Assembly (NCBI GenBank): GCA_963749155.1
Contig: CAVVLO010000002.1
Coordinates: 1 to 64,000, forward strand
Length of the DNA: 64,000 nt
Source of the DNA: an uncultured Armatimonadia bacterium
Lineage (GTDB): Bacteria; Armatimonadota; Zipacnadia; CAVVLO01
Direction: 5' to 3'
The translations under genes were made by a program, and so were the position numbers. This document shows, piece after piece, positions 1 to 25,621 of this stretch. Under the pieces are notes generated by a model that saw nothing but the letters and a program-made list of their open reading frames with translations, was not told the DNA's origin and ran no database searches. Position 1 is the stretch's first letter. Each line of letters opens with the position of its first letter.

Positions 1-57
1 TGCGAGGAGAAGGGAGCGGCAGGCGTGAGTCGACTACTCGAACTCGTGCAAAGGTCG

Positions 58-2444
58 TTACGAAGGCCCATCCGGCTGATCCAAGAGCTCCGGGCGCCCC
101 AGCTTGTCCAGTTCTGCTTGAGCCTTGGCGACGAGGCCCTGTTTCTGATAGACGAGGGCCAGGTTGTAACGCGCCCTTTCATCGTTTGGGGAGAGCTTGA
201 GGGCCTTTAGGAGCTGCACCTCGGCTTCCGACCACTTGCCCTCGTCGATGTACACAGCGCCCAGGTTCGTGAGGACTCGGGGGTCAGTCGGGTCCAGTTC
301 CAGCGCCTTCTGGTACTGGGCAAGGGCCTCGGCGGATCGCCGCTGGGCTCGGTACAGGTTGCCCAGGTAGAACCGGGCCAGCTTGCTCTCTGGTGTCAGC
401 TCCAGACACTTGCGGTAGTCCTGTTCAGCTCCCGCGTATTGCTTCTCGGCAGATCTGAGCTTGCCCCGGCGCAGATAGGCGTCCCCAGGATCAGCGCCGG
501 GGCCGGACCTTGCTTGTCGAGCTTGGCGATCGCCAGGCCTGCCTCTTCGAGCGCCTCCTCGCCCTGCCCCTCGGCCATGAGACCTTCGGCAAGCGCCAGG
601 TGAGCGCTGGGCGAGTCCTCGAGCGCAACGGCCCGCCTATACTCAGCCACAGCCTGCGCGGTATCGCCCAGGTTCGAGTAGACGACTCCCAGGTTGAAGT
701 GCAGGCGCCCGTAGTTCGGCGCCAGGCGGCCAAGCGACTGGTATGCTGAGAGCGCCCCCTCATAATCGCCGGTCATGTTGAGCACGTGGCCCAGCTGGTA
801 GTAGGCGTCAAGCGAGTACGGATCCAGCCTGAGGGCCTCGGTGAGCTGCGTCCCGGCAAGCTCCCACACGCTCTGCTGGCTGGCTAGTCTTCCCTGCTTC
901 AGGTGGTAGCCAGCAGCGAAGGCGCGCACCACCGCTACGCTGCCGAGGACTGCAGCCAGGGCTATCACTACCGACGCTGCTGCCAGCCGGCTGGCCGGCC
1001 AGGCGTTCCCTCTGGCTGTGATAACTGAGGTGCCAGGAGCTTCGCTGCGGTTACTCCGGCTCTGCTGTTCTGCCACCGTAACTAGCGCGAGCAGCAACCA
1101 GAAGAACAGGCCGCCGAACACCCACCTTAGCGTCACGCCTGCCAGGTTCTGCACCATGAACGCCACAAGCCCGCCAAGCGCCCCGCTGGCAAGGTAGCGC
1201 CAGCGGGCCTCGGCCAGGCGAGCCGCCCTCACCGCCGTTACGACGCAGGCAACTGCAAGCCAGAGGAGCAGCCCCAGCCCGATGAGGCCCGTCTCGGCCG
1301 CGGTCTCCAGGAACTCGTTGTGGGCGTGATCCACCATCGTCGCGGCGCCGGTCGAGTAGAACTCGGGCGACTCGAACTCGGGGAAGTGGATCTCGAAGGT
1401 GCCAAGGCCCGCGCCCGTGACGGGATGGGCCTTGAACATCGCAAGCGCCCCATGCCAGATACCAAGGCGCTGCACGTTCGAGGCTTCGTTCGTCTGGAAC
1501 GAAGAGGCAAGTCGTGAGGACATCGACACGGGACTGTGGCCGAGTGTCCAAAGGGTCGCCACCGCGAAGGCGAAAGCCAGCCAGCCGATCCTCAGGTACC
1601 ACGCCTTCCCGGTCTCTTCCGTGGTTGCTCGCTTCAGGCTGAGCAGAAGCCCAGTAACCACGAGCCCCAGCGCCAGCCCAAGCCACGCCGCCCGCGTGTA
1701 GGTGAAGAGCAGGCAGACATACATCAGCAGGGCCAGCGTGCCGGCGGCGAGCCGCCCTGCCCTCGTCTCCGCCTGCACGTGCAACACCACCGCCAGTGGA
1801 AGCAACAGTACCAGCCAGGCCGCAAAGAAAGTGGGATTACCGAAGGAGGAGAGCAGGCGTAGTTCCCTCGGGTACCACTCAATCCAGTCGATGCCCCAGT
1901 GCTGGAGCAACCCGTAGACGCAGGTCAACAGTGACGCGCTCATCACCACTGCCAGCAGCCGGCCCAGTTGCCCTCTCTCGGCCGCCAGATCAACGACCGC
2001 GATATAGAGCAGCGCGTAACCGGCGAGGTGGCCGAGGGCAGTGAGACTGGCGTACAGATAGCCTGACAGCAGCCCCGAGACGACATCCCAGGCGAGCATG
2101 CAGGCAAGGGGCAGGAACAGGGGCGAACGTCCCAGCCTGAGCCGCTCCCCGCGCATCAAGCGGACCGTCAGGAGGACTGCAAGCGCGATCGAGCCGAGGC
2201 CGAAGAGCAGGTCTTTGATGGCGTTGGCGTTCGCCGTGCCCGGCCAGATGGCAAGCGGCACCAGGAAGACCATCAACAGCACGATGGTCTCGCTCGCGCC
2301 CGTGAGCCAGCTCTTGGGGTTGGCGGGGTTTGGTTGAGTACCCGGATGTCTCCTTGCCACGACCCGATGGCCTCCCCGGTGCGCCTTAAGTCGCACACGT
2401 TCTGGCTGTCGTCCTAACGCTGGTTTCGGTGCAGGGCTGTGCAT
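58..2444 (-). CDS. O-antigen ligase (Wzy_C)-like membrane protein with C-terminal TPR repeats; split by a frameshift near 490-510; true start probably downstream of 2444
   Basis: Multi-TM ORF 396..2444 has SSFGNPTFFA, TYTRAAWLG, RLGIW, GAGLGTF and HAHNEFLE motifs, then TPRs. A second frame continues TPRs (DAYLRRG...ARFYLGNLY...ARYNLALVY) to the stop at 58. Confidence 0.85.
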
Positions 2445-2653
2445 ACCTGCTGATAAAGGGACAGCTCCCCCGTGGCCTCAGTGTCCGGGTGCCCAGGTCG
2501 CCTGCCCCCCGGAGCCCCTTGACTGGCAGCTGTGACATCAGCAGGTGAGCACTATGCCAGCTGCAAACCCCGCCAGGGCAGCTAAGAGGGCGGCCGGATC
2601 CAGAGACCGACTGATCGCCAGCGAACCGCCAGGCGGACATGGAGGAGGCCATT

Positions 2654-2815
2654 ATGACTGCTACGCCAGGTATTGCATCACGATCGCTGGGAGCAGTGCG
2701 ACTCGAAGCAGCCCACTTTGCTGGCGAGGTCAGTGATCGCTGCTGGCCCAGGACGCCCCAACTGAAGACCGAACCCGCCTTCGGGAGCGGCCGAGGGGCT
2801 TTCAAGCCGCACTAG
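2654..2815 (+). CDS. Possible 53-aa small protein (MTATPGIASR...)
   Basis: Strong SD GGAGGAGG at 2641-2648, ATG at 2654, TAG at 2813-2815. Below the ORF-track cutoff; no recognised family. Confidence 0.3.
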   Translation: MTATPGIASRSLGAVRLEAAHFAGEVSDRCWPRTPQLKTEPAFGSGRGAFKPH

Positions 2816-3119
2816 CTTACAAAACGCGGTTTTCGTTGTCGCGGTCTTCCTCGAGCAATCGAGTGGCCAAACCTTGCCGCTCGCGGCCCCATTTCACATC
2901 GAGAATCCGGCGAATGAATGGACCGAGTGGCGCGAGTATCGCCAGGAATTTTACGGATCCCAAGTTGACGCAGCCCTCTTGGGACGATCGAGCGTCCAGG
3001 CTCTGCCGAGTGGGCAAGCGCTGGAGCAGGCAGTCATCCCACCGCTCAGGCCCGCTGGGGCGCGCTTGAGGGCCTGTGGGAGGCACGGCCGCCCGCGCTT
3101 CGGCCCAAAGGGCTGATAA

Positions 3120-4080
3120 CAGTGGTTGCGCCTTCCCGGACGCTACTAGATGGCGCTGTGGAGCCAAATATGGCGGCCAGTCATTTATGGTTGGGACTTT
3201 GTGGCCTGGAGAGCGAAAAGCCAGGTTTTTGGGGGGTTTCGGCAGCCAGCCTCGTACCGCCAAGCCGCACCGGTACTGGGATACCAGAATCAGCGGTCGC
3301 AATTGGCCGGATGCCATACTAAGTTATAGAACCAGTTGCGGCCCGACGCGAAGGTACCGGTCACACACCAGGCCTTCTGCAAGGGCAGCTACCGCACCAA
3401 CCCATTGCAAGTCGACCGGTGTCCTGGAAAGCCAGGGGCAAGGGCGCTCTCACCAGAGACAAGCCTGGGCGCGTGATCGTGCCCAGGACGCAAACGCAAG
3501 CGACTGGACGGCAGTCGCGACGAATCGCATGAGCAAGTTGGTGAGCACACTATGGGCCAAAACTCGACGAACGACTATGAAGCAGAGCTTGGACAAGAGG
3601 CAGCGCCTTCCCGCACGCCACCGGATGGCGCTGTGGAGCCAAAGACGGCGGCCAGTGATTTATGGTTGGGCTTTTGCGGCCTGGAGAGGGCAAATTTGAG
3701 GCTTGCGGGGCCTTGCACGGCCAGGCCCATGCCGCCAGGCCGCGCCGGTATTGAAAGGTGCATTGGGCGGACACAAATTCTACCGATGCCACACTGTGTA
3801 TTGAAGGCTCAGTTGCGGCCCGATTCGAAGGCGCCGGTCACGGACCAGGCCTTCTGCAAGGGCAGCTATCGCACGAACCCATCGAGAGCCGACTGGTGTA
3901 CCGGTAAGCCAGGAGCGCTCTCACCAGAGACAAGCCTGGACGTGTGATCGCGCCCAGGACGCTAGCCCAAGCAACAGGACAGCAACCGAGTCGAATCGCA
4001 GTCACGAGTTGGTGATGGAGTATGGGCCAAAGACCTGTGAACGATTACGAAGCAGAGCTCAGACAAGTGGCTACGCCAGA
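3120..4080 (+). repeat. Degenerate tandem repeat, period ~470 bp (about two copies plus the start of a third)
   Basis: TATGGGCCAAA at 3551 and 4021; CAGTTGCGGCCCGA at ~3333 and ~3810; CTCTCACCAGAGACAAGCCTGG at ~3447 and ~3918; GATGGCGCTGTGGAGCCAAA at ~3149 and ~3624. Confidence 0.9.
3552..3947 (+). CDS. Hypothetical 131-aa protein encoded by the repeat unit; the upstream copy (3122-3475) is broken by a stop and frameshift
   Basis: Several synonymous third-position differences between copies in this frame (GAC/GAT, TAC/TAT, ACA/ACG, ACC/ACG, TGT/TGC). Both copies end at the same TGA. Confidence 0.45.
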   Translation: MGQNSTNDYEAELGQEAAPSRTPPDGAVEPKTAASDLWLGFCGLERANLRLAGPCTARPMPPGRAGIERCIGRTQILPMPHCVLKAQLRPDSKAPVTDQAFCKGSYRTNPSRADWCTGKPGALSPETSLDV

Positions 4081-4249
4081 TATCGTGAGGCGTTATGCGC
4101 TGGTGCTCCAGGTGCTCAGGAGAGCCAGAGGGCGCATGGCAGCGGCCCTTGCCCCGGCTGAAACAAGCTGTCCCGGTACTGGAGGTGGTAGGCGATGCGG
4201 TCAGAGCCTGAACCGCAGCAGCTGCCCGAGGAACTCACCGAGGAGCTAG
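4022..4249 (+). CDS. Small basic protein (75 aa) upstream of the recombinase operon
   Basis: SD-like GGTGATGGAG before ATG. N-terminus MGQxxxNDYEAEL is shared with 3552..3947, with synonymous changes. Confidence 0.45.
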   Translation: MGQRPVNDYEAELRQVATPDIVRRYALVLQVLRRARGRMAAALAPAETSCPGTGGGRRCGQSLNRSSCPRNSPRS

Positions 4250-4412
4250 CTCGATGGCTTGCCAGCATGGCTGTCGAGATAGTGCTGAAGAAGCGCCCTG
4301 GCGCCGACGCGAAGGGAGGTGAAAGTCAAGCCCCACCAGCTAGCGAGGGGTGACGTTCTGCTTTCAAACAAGCAGAGTTTAGTATAACCGTGACTCCAAT
4401 TGTTGTATGTTA

Positions 4413-4421
4413 TGCTATAAT
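4413..4421 (+). promoter_or_regulatory. Extended -10 sigma70-type promoter for the recombinase operon
   Basis: Perfect TGnTATAAT (TGCTATAAT) in an AT-rich patch about 255 bp upstream of the first recombinase ORF. Confidence 0.65.
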
Positions 4422-4675
4422 TGCTAGGGGTGCCTGGGAGCTGGTTTTCAAAACGTCCGAGGGGCGGAATCGCGAAATCGCGTTCCACTTGCCAATAAAG
4501 GCCCCCTCAGACGCCAGGAACGGACCGAGCGTGGCATCACGCCTGGCTCCCTGAAACCAGCCCCAGCGCTCTGGCAGAGGAGGTGAAGAAGTCACACTGG
4601 CTCATGAAGGCAGAACGCGAACGCAATACCCGGCCAGTCCGGGCAATCTCACCGATCCTGGATCGGTGACAAGGA

Positions 4676-5221
4676 GTGAAGAAGATAATGGTTACTGCAA
4701 AGCGAAGGGTCGGACTCTATACCCGAGTTTCGACTGACGATCAAGCCAAAGAGGGCTACTCACTGGGCGCCCAGCAACTGGCGTGCCGGGAGTATCTCGA
4801 CCGACTTTACGGCCCCGAGGATTACACCGTTGAGCTCTTCAGTGATGAGGGGCTCTCGGGCAGGCTCGGGTTCCTTCCAGACCACGGCCCCAAGCTCCGG
4901 CCAGGGCTGGTAGCTCTTACCGAAGCCATCGACAAGGGTCATCTCGACGCCGTTATCACCTGGCGCCTGGATCGCCTCAGCGACGATGGACGGGTCTGGT
5001 CGGACTTCCTCCGCGACCAGGTGGAGAAACACCAGCTCGACTTCATCTCGGTAAATGAGAATCTCGATCCCACGACCCCGATGGGCAAGTTCACCGTACA
5101 TATGCTGGCTATCTCGGCCCAATTCTTCGCGGAGTCCACGGCCGAGAATGACAAAGAGTCGATGCAGCAGCGCCGCGAGGCCGGCTACTCAACCGGCGAA
5201 GGAAGGAAGGAGACCATATGA
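4676..5221 (+). CDS. Serine recombinase catalytic-domain-only protein 1 (start may be ATG 4688)
   Basis: YTRVSTDDQ, DEGLSG, RPGL, WRLDRLSD, TPMGKF and helix E. Ends before any DNA-binding domain; ATGA overlap with the next gene. Confidence 0.9.
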   Translation: MKKIMVTAKRRVGLYTRVSTDDQAKEGYSLGAQQLACREYLDRLYGPEDYTVELFSDEGLSGRLGFLPDHGPKLRPGLVALTEAIDKGHLDAVITWRLDRLSDDGRVWSDFLRDQVEKHQLDFISVNENLDPTTPMGKFTVHMLAISAQFFAESTAENDKESMQQRREAGYSTGEGRKETI

Positions 5222-5760
5222 AGACAACTAGCCACAACCGACCTCATGTCGGTCTTTACACCCGAGTTTCGACTGACGAACAAGCCAGAGAGGGCTACTC
5301 ACTGGGCGCCCAGCAACTGGCGTGCCGGGAGTATCTCGACCGACTTTACGGCCCCGAGGATTACACCGTTGAGCTCTTCAGTGATGAGGGGCTCTCGGCC
5401 AGGCTCGGGTTCCTTCCAGACCACGGTCCCAAGCTCCGGCCAGGGCTGGTAGCTCTCGCCGAAGCCATCGACAAGGGTCATCTCGACGCCGTTATCACCT
5501 GGCGTCTGGATCGCCTCAGCGACGATGGACGGGTCTGGTCGGACTTCCTCCGCGACCAGGTGGAGAAACGCCAGCTCGACTTCATCTCGGTTAGCGAGAG
5601 GCTGGACCCCTCGACAACCATCGGCAAGTTCACCGTGCGTATGCTGGCTATCTCGGCCCAGTTTTCTGCGGAGTCCACGGCCGAGAATGTCAAAGAGTCG
5701 ATGCAGCAGTACCGCGAGGCCGGCTACTCAACCGGCGAAGGAAGGACTGAGGCCATATGA
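5218..5760 (+). CDS. Serine recombinase catalytic-domain-only protein 2
   Basis: Near-identical core to protein 1 (YTRVSTDEQ, WRLDRLSD). SD AAGGAG; ATGA overlaps at both ends. Confidence 0.9.
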   Translation: MKTTSHNRPHVGLYTRVSTDEQAREGYSLGAQQLACREYLDRLYGPEDYTVELFSDEGLSARLGFLPDHGPKLRPGLVALAEAIDKGHLDAVITWRLDRLSDDGRVWSDFLRDQVEKRQLDFISVSERLDPSTTIGKFTVRMLAISAQFSAESTAENVKESMQQYREAGYSTGEGRTEAI

Positions 5761-6344
5761 AGACAACTAGCCACAGCAGACCCCGGGTCGGGCTCTACAC
5801 CCGGGTCTCAACTGATGAGCAAGCCAAAGAAGGCTACTCCTTGGGCGCCCAGCAACTGGCGTGCAGGGAGTACCTCGACCGGCTCTATGGACCCGAGGGT
5901 TACAGCCTCGAGCTCTTCAGTGATGAGGGGCTCTCGGGCAGGCTCGGGTTCCTTCCAAACCACGGCCCCAAGCTCCGGCCAGGGCTGGCAGCTCTCGCCG
6001 AAGCGACCGACAAAGGCCAGCTGCAGGCGGTTATCGTCTGGAAGCTGGACCGCCTGGCGCGAGATGCGCGGGTGATGCTGGAGTTCCTCCAGGATCACTT
6101 GCAGAAGCGCCAGGTCGCCCTGATCTCAGTCAGCGAGAAACTGGATCCCTCATCGGCCTTCGGTAACTTCATCGTCGGCATGCTGGCTATCTCGGCCCAA
6201 CTCTTCGCGGAGTCCACGGCCGAGAACGTCAAGGAGTCGATGAAGCGACGGCGCGAGGCCGGCTACCCGACCGGAAGGGTCGGTTATGGCTGGCGTCAGG
6301 GTTACCTGCCCGATGCTGCCGTAGAGGAAGGTGAAGCGCGATGA
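5757..6344 (+). CDS. Serine recombinase catalytic-domain-only protein 3
   Basis: YTRVSTDEQ and canonical WKLDRLAR. Extends to GRVGYGW (start of the LSR linker), then stops; ATGA overlap with 6341. Confidence 0.9.
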   Translation: MKTTSHSRPRVGLYTRVSTDEQAKEGYSLGAQQLACREYLDRLYGPEGYSLELFSDEGLSGRLGFLPNHGPKLRPGLAALAEATDKGQLQAVIVWKLDRLARDARVMLEFLQDHLQKRQVALISVSEKLDPSSAFGNFIVGMLAISAQLFAESTAENVKESMKRRREAGYPTGRVGYGWRQGYLPDAAVEEGEAR

Positions 6345-8135
6345 TTGAGCCGCGGACCAGGCCAGGGATCACGCCCGAACCGGGGCAAGCCGAAGTGGTA
6401 GAGCTGATATTCAGGCTCTACCAGGAAGGTTATGGGCTGGAGTCCGTAGCGCTACAGCTGGAGGGGAGGGGGATACCCTCCCCCTCCGGCCAGCGGCGCT
6501 GGCACGCGGGCGTGGTAAGCAGGATACTCAAGAATCCAGTCCACGCGGGGCTGATAGCCCACGAAGGACAGTTGCTCAGGGGCGCTCACTACGAGCGGCG
6601 GCTGATCGAGCCGGAGGAGTTCATCGCCGTCCAGAAGCTGTTCGACCGATATCGCAAGTTCTCTCCCCGCACCAATGGGTGCACCCGGGCGCCGCTTGCC
6701 CGACTTGTGCGCTGCGCCGAGTGCGGTAGCCAGATGGGCTCTTGTCACTCGAGCGAGAAGTCTGTTGGGTATCGGTGTATGGCGACCCGCCAGCGACGTG
6801 AGTGCAGCTCGAAGCCCTACGCACGAGGTGAATACCTCGAAGCCGCAGTATTCAAGGTGCTCGTTGAACTTGGCAGCACGCCCGAGGTGCTGAAGCAGGC
6901 AAGAAGTGAAGCCCATCACTTGCTTGAGCAACAGCGAGTCAGTGGCAATGATGATGGAGTTCGCGTCCACCGAGAACTCGAAGAGCTTGAACGGCGCGAG
7001 GCGAGGTCGGCAAGAGACTACAGTACCGGCGTGATGCACGAAGAGCTATGGACGAAGACCGCCGAAGCACTCCGCCTCGAACGCGAACGCATCGAAAGCC
7101 GGCTTGCCCAGCTTGAAGTATTGGCCTCCCACGGACGAGGGCCTGTTGATGAGTTCGCAGAGGTTGAAGCGCTGCTGGGTGACTTGCCCAGGCTTTGGGA
7201 GGAAGCCGGTCCCGAGCGCAAGCGCGCGCTATGCGAAAAGCTTATTGAACGTATCGAGGTGGGGCAGGCTGCCGGGCAAGCTTCACGTCGTACTGAGGCT
7301 CAAACAACTGCAGCCGGTCGAGTTCAACCTGCCTGTTGGCAAGCAGTGGCGCAGAGCGCACAGCCCCGAGACCCGGGGCGGGCTTAGTCGACGCGAGCTT
7401 GCCTACCTGGCGCGAGTGGCCGAGGGCTATTCTGATCGCCAGATAGCGAGCCTGTTCGGCGTCGGTCGCGATACCGTTACCTGCTATCGATTAAGGGTCT
7501 ACAAGGTCCTGGGGATTCGAGACAGGGCCGAGGCAGCAAGACTCGCTGCCCCCCAGCTAGAGGAGTGGCGCGAGTTGCTGCCCCTGGAAGGGCGCTGTCA
7601 GAAGTCGACCAGACCGCCCCGAGTGCTTACCGGGTCATTGCTGGCTACGCTCAAGGCAGCGGCAGCAGGCTGCACGGCGCGCGAAGAGGCCCTTGAGCTT
7701 GGTTGCCCCAGAAGCACCATAGAGGGGCGACGAAGCTGGGTGTTGAAGAAACTGGAATCAGCTAGCATGGAGCAGGCCATCTCCAAGGCTCTTGACCTGG
7801 GCGTTATCAGGCCCGAGGAGCCCTCGGTAGAGCTACTAATCTGCGCCTGCAAGCAGCTTGTCGGGGAGGCGGGCAGAGCCCTGCGTGAGCATCACGGGCT
7901 TGGTGAGCCAACTCCTCTGCAGCTAAGTTACCTGGAGCTGCTGCGCCAGGGGCTCAGCGGACCCAGGATCGCCAAACGATACAAGGTGAGCGATGTGGCC
8001 GTGAATGCCACCTTGCGCCGACTCTGGAAGACCCTCGGAGCGGACAACCTTAAGACCGCACTGGAGAGAATCCAGCAACTAGGGCTACCCACCACTACAT
8101 CTGATGCCATAACAGGAGCTGAGAGTAATGCGTAA
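6341..8135 (+). CDS. Large serine recombinase C-terminal half (recombinase domain, zinc ribbon, coiled coil) probably fused to three LuxR-type HTH domains; ORFs 6341..7387 and 7104..8135 join by removing one G at 7261-7264
   Basis: AEVVELIF...RWHAGVVSRILKNPVHAG; CAECG...YRC...C; LIERIEV. Then HTHs LSRRELAYLARVAEGYSDRQIA, LTGSLLATLKAAAAGCTAREEA and PTPLQLSYLELLRQGLSGPRIA. Confidence 0.8.
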
Positions 8136-9768
8136 GCAAGGCAAGTCAAAGCGAGGGCAGCCCTCTGCAGCAGATCCTGCGCAGAAAGCCCGGGCTGTCG
8201 GTTATGTCCGCTGTTCAACCGAAGACCAGGTCCAAGTCGACTACAATACGCTCGAGTCTCAGAAAGACTACATCAGGAGCTATATCGCCGCGGTGCACCC
8301 CGAATGGGAGCTCCTCACTTTCTACGAGGACGCCGGCTTCTCGGGCGGCAATACCAAGCGGCCGGCGCTGCAGTTGATGCTTGCCGATGCGCGCGATGGG
8401 CAGTTCGACTTCGTCGTCACCTACAAGCTGGACCGCATCACCCGCTCACTGTCCGACTTCTTCGAGCTCGACAGCCTGCTCGAGCGTAACGAGGTAAGTT
8501 TCATATCGGTGAAGGAGCAGTTCGACACTTCGGCCCCGATGGGCCGGGCCATGCGCAACATCGCCCTCACCTTCGCCGAACTCGAACGGGAGCTCATCGC
8601 CGAGCGCACGCGCGACAAGATGATGGCACTCGTGAGGCAGGGACGTTGGCCAGGCGGCACGCCACCCTTTGGTTATTCGGTCTGCGACGGAGGGCTAACA
8701 CGTGACGAGAACGAGGCGCCGATCGTGAAGCTCATTTACGAGGAATACCTTAGGACTCGGAGCCTGGCCGCCATCCGCGACAAGCTCGTGGCCCTCGGCA
8801 TAAAGCCGGCCAACTGGAGCACCAAGACCAACCCTGACAAGCGCGTCGTGCACCGCTGGTCCAAGCAGAAGGTAAGCTACATCCTGCAGAATCGCACCTA
8901 CTGCGGCGAACTGAACTATGCTGGCGAAAGGACCGAGAATACCCATCCCGCGATCATAGACCTGGAGACTTATGAACTGGCTCAGCAGCTGTTCGCAGAG
9001 CGTTGTCGTAAACCCAACCTGACTGTAGCCTATGAGTTCCTGCTCACAACCAAAGTCTACTGCGACCATTGCGGGTGCAGGATGTCGCCCCGAGCTACGA
9101 TGCACCCCAACCGGAAGAAGAGCTTCACCGCCTACTATGAATGCTACCGCATAGGCCGCTACCAAGGTATCGAGTGCGACGTCAGGCGCATCAACGGCGA
9201 GTTGCTGGACCAGCTGTTTCTCAACCTCATCGGAGAGCTTGCTGTCGATGAGGAAGCCCTTAGGAAGGCCGCCGCCGAGACCTTGCTCGAGACTGATGCC
9301 GCCACCGCTTCACTGAGGCAAGAGGGGCTGGAACTGGGGCGCAGGCACGACGACCTGCAGGGCAGACTCGAGGAAGTCCTCCAGGCCATCGAGCAGGGTC
9401 TGCGAAGCGATGCCATCCAGGGCAGGCTGAGGAAGCTGGAGACGGACTTGCGTAAAGTGGTGGCTGAACTGGCTGAGGTGAAGCTCAAGCTGCGCGAGGC
9501 CTCGCCCCTCGCTCTGGATGTGGTCGAGGCGAGGGCACTCTTCGCCGAACTAACGGAACTCCTGCCCTTCTGCACGCTGGATGAGAAGCGCCTGCTGGTG
9601 GACGCCCTCGTGAAGCGCATAACCGTCCAGAAAGACAAAACGGTGATCTTCGAGCTCTTTGCAGGCTCAGAAGAACACCGCGTTGTCCAGAACGTTAAGA
9701 GTGGTAGCGCCAAGGGGATTCGAACCCCTGTTACCGGAGTGAGAGTCCAGCGTCCTAGACCGAGCTAG
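8128..9768 (+). CDS. Full-length large serine recombinase (integrase)
   Basis: YVRCST, DAGFSGG, KLDRITR, FAELERELIAERT, GGTPPFGY, ILQNRTYCG, CDHCG...YYEC, coiled coil, LVKRITV. Confidence 0.95.
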   Translation: MRKQGKSKRGQPSAADPAQKARAVGYVRCSTEDQVQVDYNTLESQKDYIRSYIAAVHPEWELLTFYEDAGFSGGNTKRPALQLMLADARDGQFDFVVTYKLDRITRSLSDFFELDSLLERNEVSFISVKEQFDTSAPMGRAMRNIALTFAELERELIAERTRDKMMALVRQGRWPGGTPPFGYSVCDGGLTRDENEAPIVKLIYEEYLRTRSLAAIRDKLVALGIKPANWSTKTNPDKRVVHRWSKQKVSYILQNRTYCGELNYAGERTENTHPAIIDLETYELAQQLFAERCRKPNLTVAYEFLLTTKVYCDHCGCRMSPRATMHPNRKKSFTAYYECYRIGRYQGIECDVRRINGELLDQLFLNLIGELAVDEEALRKAAAETLLETDAATASLRQEGLELGRRHDDLQGRLEEVLQAIEQGLRSDAIQGRLRKLETDLRKVVAELAEVKLKLREASPLALDVVEARALFAELTELLPFCTLDEKRLLVDALVKRITVQKDKTVIFELFAGSEEHRVVQNVKSGSAKGIRTPVTGVRVQRPRPS

Positions 9769-9779
9769 ACGATGGCGCC
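9702..9779 (-). tRNA. tRNA-Glu(CTC)
   Basis: Reverse complement GGCGCCATCGTCTAGCTCGGTCTAGGACGCTGGACTCTCACTCCGGTAACAGGGGTTCGAATCCCCTTGGCGCTACCA: acceptor stem, anticodon CTC, TTCGAA T-loop and encoded CCA. Confidence 0.97.
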
Positions 9780-9790
9780 ACGCGGCGATG

Positions 9791-9819
9791 ATGTTAGCAG
9801 AAGCCCCCAGGGGCGTCAA
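9791..9819 (-). promoter_or_regulatory. sigma70 promoter of tRNA-Glu
   Basis: TTGACG-N17-TAACAT with extended TG. Confidence 0.75.
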
Positions 9820-9874
9820 CACCTCTCAGAGGCTCCCCCAGGGGCTTCCACCTTCTCATAAAGCCTACTGCTGC

Positions 9875-10129
9875 CTAGTTGCAGCTACATCCGCTGCAGC
9901 CACAGTCCGAACCTTTGTCCTCGGCTTCGTCGCTCTCGAGGAAAGCGTTCAACTCGGCTACAAGGGCCTCCACGTCCGTCCCGTGCGCCTCGGCGCCCAT
10001 CTCCAGACTCTCCATACTCGAGATTGGGCAACCGATGCAATGCATCCCATGCTTCAGGAAGATAGGCGCTGTCTCCCGGCTTATCTTCAGTACTTCCGCG
10101 AAAGTCATATCCTTTGTCACTTTTGCCAT
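9875..10129 (-). CDS. DUF1858 (hybrid-cluster-associated redox disulfide) domain protein
   Basis: VTKDMTFAEVL...FLKHGMHCIGC...ESLEMGAEAHG; Cys-rich tail. Confidence 0.85.
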   Translation of the reverse strand: MAKVTKDMTFAEVLKISRETAPIFLKHGMHCIGCPISSMESLEMGAEAHGTDVEALVAELNAFLESDEAEDKGSDCGCSGCSCN

Positions 10130-10145
10130 CTAACTTTCTCCTCCA

Positions 10146-11910
10146 TCAGAACTGGCTTTGCCAGTTGGTTAACTGCAAGAACTCGTCCCAATGGGTCGCA
10201 CTCGACCAGTCCAGCAGGTCGTAGTCGTCATCATAGGCCGACCCATTGTTCAAAACATAAAGCGCTAGCCCTTCGGCATCGATTGAATCAAAAGTCGAAT
10301 GTATCTCGTTTATCACGGCATTCGACACTGCGCTCCTTACATTATCGAGCGCCGACTGCACTCCAGCATCGCTGATCGTCTCCAGCTTATCCGCCAAATC
10401 ATACAGATCGCAAGTTGCAGTCGAGGTATTAAAATCCTCTGCGCCCTGCAAGGCAGTTGCCATCAAGCCCTGATCATTTGGGAATCGGGCAATCAACGCG
10501 TTTGCCAACTGGTCTACTGCAGCAGCCAGGCCAGTCATCTGGCTGAGATCGATTGCCGAAAGCGTCCTGTTGCTGGCGCCTGGATTGTAGCTGTCTGCGT
10601 ATAAATCTACAATCGCTGAAGCCAGTTGTGCTGCAGTAGCAGTTGGATTATCAAGCATCCACTCGATGACAGTGTCATAGGGAAGTCCGTAGGCTGGCAC
10701 TTCGTCTTCAGAAACCACAGCATATTCCGCATAGTCTTTCATTGCGTAACAGACTTCTGCAAAGCCCATCACGCAAGCGTCCATATCCAGTATCTCGACA
10801 TCGCCAGCAGTTGCCAGAGCGCTCTTGAGTTCAGGCAGATTGAGCCAGTCACCGCCATTTGTAGAGTCCTGGCAGATAGCCCGGGTGGGTATCTCCTGGA
10901 CTGCGCGGTAATCCCAGCCTGAGCCGTGATCCCAAAGCACCAGGCAATAATTATCGGCCGGATAATGCTCTTTGGCCCAACTGATGAAATTGGCCAGTGT
11001 AGTCGCACTGCCCATGTTCTGCTCGGGCAAGGTCTCAACGATAGTCGAATTGAGCACACTCAGATTGGTATCTGGTTGCATCTCATAACGCCAGGTGCCT
11101 GTATCGCCAATCCGGTCCCACTGCACGACGACCTTAACGGGGCCTTCAGCCTGAGCCAGCCCATATTCCATTTCTTGCATATCCATCGAGGCATAGGAAT
11201 CCAGGCTGTTGTCGCCATCGAGATAGACCAGGAAGGTCCAGGCGGAGCTTGTAACCGTCACATCAAGCTCGGTGTGGTAGGTGCTCCAGTCCGCGGTTAT
11301 CTTGCCGCTTGCCGATGAGACACCCGCGCCCAGCGCGGCGGTAAAAAGACCGTTGCTATCAATGTCGCCGATGCTTCCGATGACATCCCAGGTCACTGTG
11401 CCCGGGAGCACGATACGAGTACTCCTCGCCCCGGTTCCCAAACTCGTCTACCCCAGCGGCTTCGAACTGCACCTGGGCGCCGGCCGGGATGGCGTTCACG
11501 TCACGGTTCTCTGGTGGCAGAATCACGATGTCAGCAATAGCGCCCACCACAACAGTCACATTGGCAACAGCCACTTTACTCCCAACAGTCGCTACAACTG
11601 TACCGGTTACAGGATCATCGGTGCTGGTTGTTGTGGTAACGCTAAGCAGGCCCTCTCCATCGATGGTGCCGATCCCTCCCGTGACGCTCCAATCGGGATT
11701 TACAGAAACCGGGTTATCTTCTGAATCATAGGCGGTAGCCGTAAACTGGTAATCGGCGCCCGCTATCAGGTTGCCCGAATCGGGCGATATCTCGAGCCTG
11801 GCGATGGAACTGCCGCCGCCTCCCCCACCACAGCCTGCAAGCAAGGACGCGACGAGAATCAGACAACCTAGACCGACCAGTTTGGGCATAAGGGCTGAGC
11901 GCACTGTCAT
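10146..11910 (-). CDS. Clostripain-family (C11) cysteine peptidase lipoprotein with Ig-like repeats; frameshift near 11430
   Basis: Lipobox LLAGC after SD GGAGG; WTFLVYLDGDNSL, catalytic WDHGSGW and DACVM. ORFs 11359..11973 and 10146..11441 join in a G-run. Confidence 0.85.
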
Positions 11911-24021: not shown

Positions 24022-25621
24022 ATGGGACCCACCTGGGATGACCAGTGGCGCCGCAAGCTGGAAGCGCACGGGCTGCGCAATTTCGGCGAGGTACACTGGA
24101 ATGCAAGCACTGGCGAACTATACGAGCACGCCGTCCGCAGGCGTGAGGGGCTAATCGCCCACCTCGGCGCTCTTTGTGTCCGCACTGGCCACCACACTGG
24201 CCGGTCTCCTAATGACAAATTCATCGTGCAAGAACCTACCAGCGAAAACAACATCTGGTGGGGCAACAACGTCTCCTTCAGCCCTGAGCAGTTTGACAGG
24301 TTACATTCACGCCAACTCGCATACCTTCAGGGCAAAGACCTTTTCGTGCAGGACTGTTTCGTCTGCGCGCATCCCAAATACAAGATGCCCATCCGCGTCA
24401 TAACTGAAGATGCCTGGTGCAGCCTGTTCGCCCGCAACCTTTTCCTGCGTATCTTCGATGATGAAGAGCTGGTAAACCACGAGCCGGAGTTCACCATCCT
24501 CCATATGCCTCACTTCCACTCGATCTCGGAAGAAGATGGCACTCGCTCTGAGTCCTTCATCATCCTCAACTTCGAGAAGCGCCTGGCCATTATCGGCGGT
24601 ACCAGCTATGGCGGCGAGATCAAGAAGTCGATGTTCACCATCCTCAACTACTTGCTGCCCGAGAAGGGCGTGCTGCCGATGCACTGTTCGGCCAATATGG
24701 GCCGTGAGGGCGATGTGGCGTCTGTTCTTTGGGCTGTCAGGAACCGGCAAGACAACCCTCTCAGCCGATCCCAAGCGGATGCTGATTGGCGACGATGAGC
24801 ATGGCTGGGGCGTGGATGGCATCTTCAACTTCGAAGGCGGTTGCTACGCCAAAGTCATCAAACTATCGGCCGAGAAGGAGCCGCAGATTTACTCCTGCAC
24901 CCGGCGCTTCGGCACTCTGATGGAGAACGTAGCCATCGATCGCATCAGCCGGCGCGTAGATTTGGACGATGATTCCTTCACCGAGAACACCAGGGCTGCT
25001 TATCCCATTGGCTATATCCCCAACGCCGTGGAAAACGGCCGAGGCGGCCATCCTAGTCATGTCGTCCTCCTGACCTGTGACGCCTTCGGAGTAATGCCTC
25101 CGGTGGCCAAACTTACCCACGAGCAGGCGATGTTCCACTTTATGTCGGGGTATACGGCCAGGGTCGCGGGTACCGAGAAGGGCCTTACCGAGCCTGCCTC
25201 GACTTTCAGCGCCTGTTTCGGAGCGCCCTTCCTGCCGAGGCATCCCTCGGTCTACGCGAAGATGCTAGGCGAGAAGCTGGCCCAGCATGGTTCGGAGTGC
25301 TGGCTGGTGAATACTGGCTGGAGCGGTGGCCCTTATGGAGTAGGCGAGCGGATGGACATCAATCACACGCGCGCCATCATTGACGAGATCCTCGCTGGCA
25401 GGCTTTCGAAGGTTGCAACAAGGACCGACCCGAACCTGAACCTTGAGGTGCCTGTGACCTGTGAAGGGGTGCCAGATGAGGTACTTGATCCTCGCGCAAC
25501 CTGGTCAGACAAGAAACAGTTCGACCTCACAGCGGTCAAGCTTAAAGAAGATTTCCAGGCCAATATGGCCAAGTTTGACGACGACTTTGCTCGTGAGATA
25601 GCGGCCCACGGCCCCAAGTAG
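24022..25621 (+). CDS. pckA: Phosphoenolpyruvate carboxykinase (ATP); frameshift near 24721
   Basis: [52 protein letters not shown]. Confidence 0.95.

Follow-up and report, generated by a model that had tools for sequence, protein, structure and literature searches.

The closest described systems to the locus reported here are the large serine recombinases (LSRs), among them the TP901-1, A118/LI, phiC31 and Bxb1 integrases, with which it shares a catalytic domain, a Recombinase domain, a zinc ribbon, a putative helical arm and a tRNA gene as a neighbor. LSRs are leading tools for the insertion of large DNA, and their main limit is a fixed target specificity. Our locus lies in a stretch of 64,000 nucleotides (nt), here called the window, that makes up positions 1 to 64,000 of contig CAVVLO010000002.1 (C2 below) of an uncultured Armatimonadia bacterium (GCA_963749155.1; genome G000 below). 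Unlike in canonical LSRs, the catalytic domain is encoded here on a separate polypeptide, by one to three tandem gene copies, and the DNA-binding chain, encoded at 6341-8135, has a C-terminal extension of ~290 amino acids (aa) with three LuxR-type helix-turn-helix (HTH) modules. We know of no characterized integrase with such a LuxR-type tail.

Several other systems share part of this arrangement. Small serine recombinases (resolvases and invertases), zinc-finger recombinases and recCas9 also combine a catalytic domain and its long helix with an exchangeable HTH or other DNA-binding module, but there the modules are covalently joined, whereas here they are separate natural gene products. The natural split falls at the linker that engineers have long used to attach catalytic domains to foreign DNA-binding modules. 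CcrA/CcrB of SCCmec, and XisF with XisH/XisI, are similar in that one element carries adjacent recombinase genes or a recombinase with accessory proteins; to our knowledge, neither system has a split enzyme or a LuxR tail. The DNA-binding domains of LuxR, GerE and NarL have the same four-helix fold as our tail modules, but here there is no receiver or ligand-binding domain, and three tandem modules end a recombinase chain. We found no LuxR-tailed recombinase and no natural split serine recombinase in the literature, a weak absence since subscription journals lay outside the search. According to PMC10083194, DUF4368 is a C-terminal accessory domain of multi-targeting LSRs. It is, like the tail, an extra domain after the zinc ribbon and coiled coil, and it is linked there to target choice (PMC10083194); those LSRs are single chains, whereas the appended part here is a LuxR/GerE HTH tandem.

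We propose that positions 6341-8135 encode one protein of ~597 aa, the DNA-binding subunit of a naturally split LSR, and we give this reading a probability of roughly 50%. The open reading frame (ORF) directly upstream, cat3, would supply the catalytic domain and the long helix as a separate protein, translationally coupled to the DNA-binding ORF through an ATGA overlap. The ~597-aa protein would supply site recognition, and on DNA the pair would come together non-covalently; both this subunit assembly and catalysis are what we infer. Two further catalytic ORFs, cat1 and cat2, which lack a catalytic arginine, would act as modulators of the complex, and the HTH tail, common to unsplit relatives of 680-860 aa, would add DNA contacts. 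Together with a small ORF upstream and a complete recombinase, LSR-B, downstream, these genes would make up the integration/excision apparatus of a small mobile element at a tRNA gene. The features are as follows.

4022..4249, plus strand: small conserved ORF (75 aa) ahead of the catalytic genes; motif TPD[IA]V[RE]RYA..L[EQ][VI]L.RA.
4688..5221, plus strand: cat1, stand-alone Resolvase catalytic-domain ORF (Pfam Resolvase E 1.1e-26; DRLSD).
5218..5760, plus strand: cat2, second stand-alone catalytic-domain ORF (Pfam Resolvase E 8.4e-25; DRLSD).
5757..6344, plus strand: cat3, catalytic-domain ORF adjoining the DNA-binding gene (Pfam Resolvase E 9e-27).
6341..7273, plus strand: first part of the candidate DNA-binding subunit, with Recombinase (~6386-6646), zinc ribbon (~6692-6862), a helical (coiled-coil-like) region and LIERIEVGQAA, the C-terminal motif of the recombinase.
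7274..7276, plus strand: GGG run with one G in excess compared with relatives (contigs X1 and X4); frame break.
7275..8135, plus strand: tail of the candidate DNA-binding subunit, with the last recombinase strands, then HTH1 (~7389-7565), HTH2 (~7632-7799) and HTH3 (~7914-8081).
8128..9768, plus strand: LSR-B, canonical large serine recombinase, 546 aa, intact; 8-nt overlap with the tail ORF, 3′ end overlapping tRNA-Glu.
9702..9779, minus strand: tRNA-Glu (CTC), found by ARAGORN (Rfam tRNA 58.4 bits).

As assembled, the DNA-binding ORF (6341-7387, 348 aa) matches Pfam Recombinase (PF07508, E 6e-15, 55.8 bits against a cut-off of 21.1) and Zn_ribbon_recom (PF13408, E 7e-11, 42.7 bits against 25.3). 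There is no Pfam match to the Resolvase domain in this ORF, and thus no in-chain catalytic domain as in a canonical LSR. An initial annotation, made from the letters alone, had described it as the DNA-binding half of a recombinase without its catalytic domain, and these matches bear that out. At ~175-300, it can be aligned with the corresponding part of its relatives, and this region closes with a conserved F..lW..l..ER. The start, ATG 6341, overlaps the stop of cat3 (ATGA) and stands 9-10 nt behind a Shine-Dalgarno-like gaggaagg, and a stop in the same frame lies two codons before it (6332-6334). We aligned contigs from four public runs to 6200-8200. Two of them (X2 and X3) are identical to the window across 6288-6576; X4 retains the ATGA, with a net gain of 9 nt just upstream that preserves the frame. 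The junction is therefore not a long-read artefact; the contigs could come from the same organism or campaign, and so they are not independent evolutionary support.

What the initial annotation missed is the set of three stand-alone Resolvase ORFs directly upstream (4676-5221, 5218-5760 and 5757-6344). They form a tandem repeat with a period of 539 nt, and every ORF overlaps the next through ATGA. The start of cat1 is either ATG 4688, preceded by AAGGAG, or an alternative in-frame GTG at 4676; that of cat2 is preceded by a Shine-Dalgarno-like gaaggaaggagaccatATG, and sequences of this kind stand ahead of each ORF start in the window. The best solved relative of cat3 is the catalytic domain of the TP901-1 integrase (3bvp, E 3.5e-13). 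It keeps YTRVS...Q and DRLAR, has the C-terminus GRVGYGW...GEAR before its stop, and is 50-53% identical to the catalytic ORFs of two further loci introduced below, a paralogue in the same genome and a counterpart in genome G372. In the alignment, the gene-proximal catalytic ORFs of all three loci retain R-V-S and D-R-L-x-R. In cat1 and cat2, the second Arg of the family motif DRLxR is replaced by Asp (DRLSD), and the extra catalytic copy of G372, which is truncated and degenerate, reads R-T-A, with Ala in place of Ser. On the basis of the DRLGR motif, we equate these positions with S10 and R71 of Tn3 resolvase. That enzyme no longer recombines DNA once S10, R68 or R71 is mutated (PMC2794168). 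The ratio of nonsynonymous to synonymous substitution (dN/dS) is 0.44 between cat1 and cat2 (dS 0.20, Fisher p 0.007) and 0.29 and 0.24 for the other two pairs of catalytic copies (Fisher p 5e-10 and 1e-11). By their sequence, cat1 and cat2 probably modulate the complex instead of cutting DNA.

The split is found in three loci with a readable context, which are the basis of all counts of it here: the window, the paralogue on contig C1 (L008) and the G372 locus (L047). Gene order is the same in all three, namely small ORF, catalytic gene or genes, DNA-binding subunit, LSR-B and tRNA. The window has three catalytic ORFs and lies beside tRNA-Glu. The paralogue has one, followed by a recombinase part that is in frame with HTH1, beside tRNA-Gln; G372 has one good catalytic ORF and the truncated, degenerate one, followed by an intact 594-aa DNA-binding subunit, beside tRNA-Asn. 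Each time, the catalytic ORF runs into the beginning of the DNA-binding ORF, with an overlap of 4 nt in the window, 23 nt in the paralogue and ~8-11 nt in G372, and the DNA-binding frame is closed two codons (window) or zero codons (paralogue) upstream of its start. Between window and paralogue, synonymous sites are saturated (proportion of synonymous differences 0.755-0.769), with a proportion of nonsynonymous differences of 0.32-0.37. Architecture and conservation are thus seen directly in the three loci, and the module is, as these substitution patterns show, under purifying selection.

Overlapping ORFs in adjacent frames at all three loci, and the existence of fused relatives such as P0016, bring to mind another way of making the enzyme: programmed ribosomal frameshifting that joins the catalytic and DNA-binding ORFs into a full-length recombinase of ~790 aa. 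The window would need a −1 shift, whereas the paralogue and G372 would need a +1 shift. Only ~7 nt (6335-6341) lie between the two frame stops in the window, and no homopolymer or X XXY YYZ slippery run was seen by eye in the window gap or in the 23-nt overlap of the paralogue. Each downstream ORF also has its own start codon and Shine-Dalgarno-like sequence. We rejected this mechanism, given the inconsistent direction of the shift and the lack of a visible slippery run, and regard it as very improbable.

The DNA-binding gene itself is interrupted in the assembly. The overlapping tail frame (7104-8135) has no ATG, GTG or TTG between TTG 7245 and GTG 7416, and the latter falls inside HTH1, so that this frame has no credible start, just as the initial annotation had remarked of its second ORF. 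Removing one base joins both frames into a protein of ~597 aa. That annotation had proposed the same join, by deletion of a G at 7261-7264; the length and the frame stand, and the position does not. Contig X1 (232 nt, over 7106-7338, with four other letters and one gap) and contig X4 (3244 nt, ~88-90% identity, over 6242-8163) are both one base short at 7274, in the GGG run 7274-7276, with no change listed at 7261-7264. Because they drop the base there, the junction reading LIERIEVGQAAGKLHVVLRL in place of ...G-RLPGKLH is supported. This reading aligns gap-free with EVGLAQGAVSIRVLF of the paralogue and with the orthologues (VGRADGRVRVRLKL and the like). Deletion at either place restores the same frame, and three residues differ. 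We sought this strain's own reads in public sequencing runs and found none there, the best word share being 0.11. A four-letter codon (GGGC or GTGG) was considered for reading across the break and rejected, since both words also occur in frame at other places in the ORF. The recombinase part and the tail of the window were searched separately rather than as a joined sequence.

A second gene of the window has the same defect. The housekeeping gene pckA (24022-25621) is split by a 1-nt insertion near 24705, just before the P-loop motif, and its halves match Pfam PEPCK_ATP positions 2-213 and 214-465 in two frames; this indicates an assembly indel error or a real gene inactivation. Since pckA is also frameshifted and the paralogous locus has two further frameshifts, we favor an assembly error as the probable source of the extra G at 7274-7276, with a (very) recent mutation as the alternative. 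The frameshifts of the other two loci lie at ~4485 and 6064-6125 in L008 and at ~8713 in L047. In LSR-B of G372, a T is dropped from a TTT run, and only the window copy of this gene is intact among the three loci.

Such damage could be read more broadly: the locus may be the decaying remnant of an ordinary fused recombinase, with the split, the tandem copies and the frameshifts as signs of pseudogenization and no piece functional. The frameshifts in the window (7274), the paralogue (HTH1-HTH2 and LSR-B) and G372 (LSR-B) fit this view, as do the active-site changes in the extra catalytic copies. Decay would not, however, be expected to leave the same linker split in three synonymously saturated loci with the frames open on both sides, or dN/dS well below 1. 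Shine-Dalgarno-like sequences and overlapping stop-start junctions stand before each window ORF, at least three more clusters at 50% identity contain intact proteins (583-617 aa), and the frameshift in pckA points to assembly error. We therefore consider decay unlikely.

The initial annotation had counted three LuxR/GerE-like HTH repeats in the tail, and all three modules are LuxR-type, HTH1 by its Pfam score and HTH2 and HTH3 by predicted fold. The tail frame as a whole reaches 61.7 bits for Pfam GerE. HTH1 alone gives 39.6 bits for GerE (PF00196), over the cut-off of 23.5, whereas HTH2 (15.7 bits) and HTH3 (16.0 bits) fall under it. An AlphaFold2 model of the 286-aa tail, built from a 12-row alignment (mean predicted local distance difference test score [pLDDT] 80.8), has three four-helix modules, at residues 39-97, 120-175 and 214-269. 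In Foldseek, the top matches of the whole-tail model are LuxR-type domains, only at E 0.013-0.14. Fold comparisons at the level of single modules covered HTH2 and HTH3, and HTH1 is classed by its Pfam score and its four predicted helices. HTH2 (model residues 116-178, VIA-align) superimposes on RhlR with Z 13.4 and a root mean square deviation (rmsd) of 0.8 Å over 63 residues, and on the DNA-binding domains of RhlR, TraR, GerE and NarL with Z 11-13.4 and rmsd 0.8-2.0 Å over 62-67 residues. HTH3, folded alone (pLDDT 75.6), finds only LuxR/GerE/NarL DNA-binding domains among its listed Foldseek matches (E 0.005-0.09, probability 1.00), with a template modeling score of 0.80-0.81 against GerE.

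Because of this fold and its presence on catalytically complete relatives, the tail would most likely make extra DNA contacts at accessory or extended sites or bind the element's own promoter. More tentatively, at less than even odds, the locus may be a natural multi-subunit recombinase, with catalysis and targeting on separate, non-covalently assembled proteins, in which dead catalytic paralogues are built-in regulators and the LuxR-type tail reads accessory sites, as the arm-binding domains of tyrosine integrases do. It would then be the first natural precedent of a recombinase with an exchangeable targeting subunit.

An exhaustive search with the 308-aa recombinase part against 1.84 billion representatives gave 5229 matches at E<=1e-3, of which 10 reach E<=1e-30. 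Closest among the full-length relatives are P0011 (617 aa, 40% identity), P0012 (583 aa, 39%) and P0013 (593 aa, 34%). Query residues 3-308 align to residues 3/9-308/314 of these proteins, which leaves no room for a catalytic domain, and each has three HTH modules and no Resolvase match. Two fragments, P0014 and P0113, share this starting methionine. A profile search of 401 Armatimonadota genomes found one full-length orthologue, the intact 594-aa copy of G372 (E 1.5e-221), which has no stops and no Resolvase domain. The catalytic-less arm with transcription-factor-like modules that the initial annotation described is thus real and conserved, in P0011-P0013 and in the G372 ORF, and homologues carry the HTH tail fused to the recombinase part, not as a separately encoded protein.

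The unsplit counterpart is P0016 (815 aa, 33% identity), which joins Resolvase, Recombinase, zinc ribbon and three HTH modules, and at greater distance the tail is found on ordinary fused enzymes, 680-860 aa long. Among same-class genomes, the tail is matched in 23 of 61 (G000 included) at E<=1e-3, best in open frames of 670-745 aa that hold Resolvase, Recombinase, zinc ribbon and two, in some cases four, GerE-like modules. By local hidden Markov models, 91 of the 149 nearest representative clusters have the tail, 117 the catalytic domain and 79 both. The tail occurs without a catalytic domain in 12 of these clusters, some of which may be fragments. One fused member of ~819 aa, annotated "hypothetical protein," is encoded on a plasmid of a cultured Abditibacteriota strain. 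Longer forms of the tail were also sought with a word-based protein search, which gave a single protein, the fused P0001 of 688 aa. Phage records cover at most 55% of the G372 protein, and so none has the tail. A metagenome scan with a single protein found no relative; with an alignment as the query, it found five loci, among them a fused tail-bearing one (L024) and none of the split clade. A scan with a closer alignment gave three loci, of which L048 shares coordinates with L047 and is not independent.

Two of the relatives depart from the common pattern. P0015 (544 aa), a fused protein, has RVGG in place of the nucleophile motif RVS. At another locus (L020, G019:C17:1-8000), with a match from 3107-3922 onward, a 744-aa open frame joins a 5′-shortened Recombinase part and a zinc ribbon to four GerE-like modules; no catalytic domain is detectable within the 8 kb read. 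This could be another catalytic-less form, independent of the first, or else a remnant.

L020, a recombinase DNA-binding part with four HTH modules and no catalytic domain in those 8 kb, also fits the main rival to a split enzyme. Here, the 6341-8135 product would be a catalytically inert protein of recombinase origin, a DNA-binding regulator or an architectural factor that works with LSR-B: with its recombinase domains and LuxR modules, it would bind att-like or promoter DNA and so control LSR-B (directionality, site choice or repression of the module). The stand-alone catalytic proteins would then modulate LSR-B or be leftovers, and at no time make up an active enzyme together with the DNA-binding protein. 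Consistent with this, a catalytic domain is missing from the polypeptide, modules of the LuxR type usually belong to transcription factors, and the extra catalytic copies have lost catalytic residues. A complete LSR-B gene adjoins in all three loci, with its 3′ end in a tRNA gene, and its product could do all the catalysis. The gene-proximal catalytic ORF, however, keeps the nucleophile serine and both arginines in all three loci, and it has been under purifying selection through a synonymous divergence that is saturating, unlike an inert leftover. The same tail is carried by catalytic recombinases of 680-860 aa, and therefore we see it as primarily a recombinase accessory rather than a transcription-factor marker. 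We hold the regulator to be possible, if doubtful. Of the roles that the initial annotation suggested, a targeting subunit fits best, because catalytic domains are encoded immediately upstream; an architectural factor and an autoregulator are both possible.

For the split enzyme, a complex prediction offers weak, model-based support. The pair of cat3 and the 308-aa DNA-binding part passed with a score of 0.35, against 0.00 for the best of three controls. Of 157 solved complexes, 116 reach the mark used for this score, as do 2 of 215 mismatched pairs; among passes at 0.60 or less are only 18 of the 157 solved complexes, and both of the mismatches. At least 75% of contacts are common to the runs, with a pLDDT of at least 72 for the partner.

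Several observations weigh against a split recombinase. The pass in the complex prediction may only mirror the likeness of these halves of a split gene to solved full-length recombinases. In known enzymes, a covalent linker positions the catalytic domain on DNA, and we know of no natural split serine recombinase, so that non-covalent assembly has no precedent. The clade is rare and was found in G000 and G372 only: no further copy was found among the 401 sampled Armatimonadota genomes and 101 relatives of G372. P0011-P0013 stand outside the count of three split loci, and an upstream catalytic gene is unproven for them. The DNA-binding gene is frameshifted in both the window (7274) and the paralogue (between HTH1 and HTH2), as is LSR-B in the paralogue and G372, possibly through decay rather than error. 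Finally, P0002 (231 aa), which is 75% identical to the window protein and 5′-partial on a 1661-nt contig, has a gene call that ends at ...IEVG, which hints at a stop or break at the same junction in a relative.

If the split reading is true, the covalent link in an LSR would be dispensable, and the locus would offer a scaffold for swappable targeting subunits or inducible assembly. If the protein is an inert regulator instead, the locus would document the recruitment of a recombinase DNA-binding half as a DNA-binding factor. The tail itself, being on 91 of the 149 nearest clusters, suggests that these enzymes gain DNA contacts or regulation in a way not yet described.

Downstream, the final ~22 codons of LSR-B are the complement of the 3′ part of tRNA-Glu (9702-9768), and the recombinase 3′ end likewise overlaps tRNA-Gln in L008 and tRNA-Asn in L047. 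The tRNA-Glu gene is probably the integration target of the element. We looked for a second copy of its 3′ end as a sign of the element's other boundary and found chance matches of 9-13 nt only. The best NCBIfam partial matches are to CcrB, CcrC, CcrA and XisF, none of which reaches its equivalog cut-off: LSR-B scores 137.3 against CcrB (cut-off 900) and 125.9 against XisF (cut-off 375), and the candidate DNA-binding subunit of G372 scores 40.9 against XisF. An Rfam scan found no match besides the tRNA. A promoter and terminator scan of 2800-10200 gave nothing usable, with one promoter-like site (1.3 expected) and five terminator-like ones (6.1 expected).

The small ORF has counterparts in the other two loci, at 8233-8412 in L008 and 12061-12219 in L047 (both minus strand), with lengths of 53-75 aa over the set. 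A 44-nt stretch of it is 86% identical between window and paralogue, though the flanking genes are saturated. It matches no Pfam or PHROG family, and its best Atlas match, 0.78, is below the level of a lead. It is a possible candidate for an accessory or directionality factor. There is also a tandem repeat at 3076-4077 (period ~475 nt, ~2.1 copies, 77-84% identity). Its second and third units open with some 19 codons from the start of the small ORF (MGQ..NDYEAEL), so that what is duplicated is the beginning of this ORF along with DNA upstream of it. It has no family match and no copy elsewhere in the genome.

At its left end, the window (1-2843) is 98% identical to G000:C1:953944-956789, and contig C2 begins inside this duplication. 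The duplicated stretch, of at least 2.8 kb and upstream of each of the two recombinase modules, holds a Wzy_C/TPR (O-antigen-ligase-like) gene. Two related elements that have exchanged their integration modules may have it in common as cargo, or it may be a repeat at which the assembly broke off.

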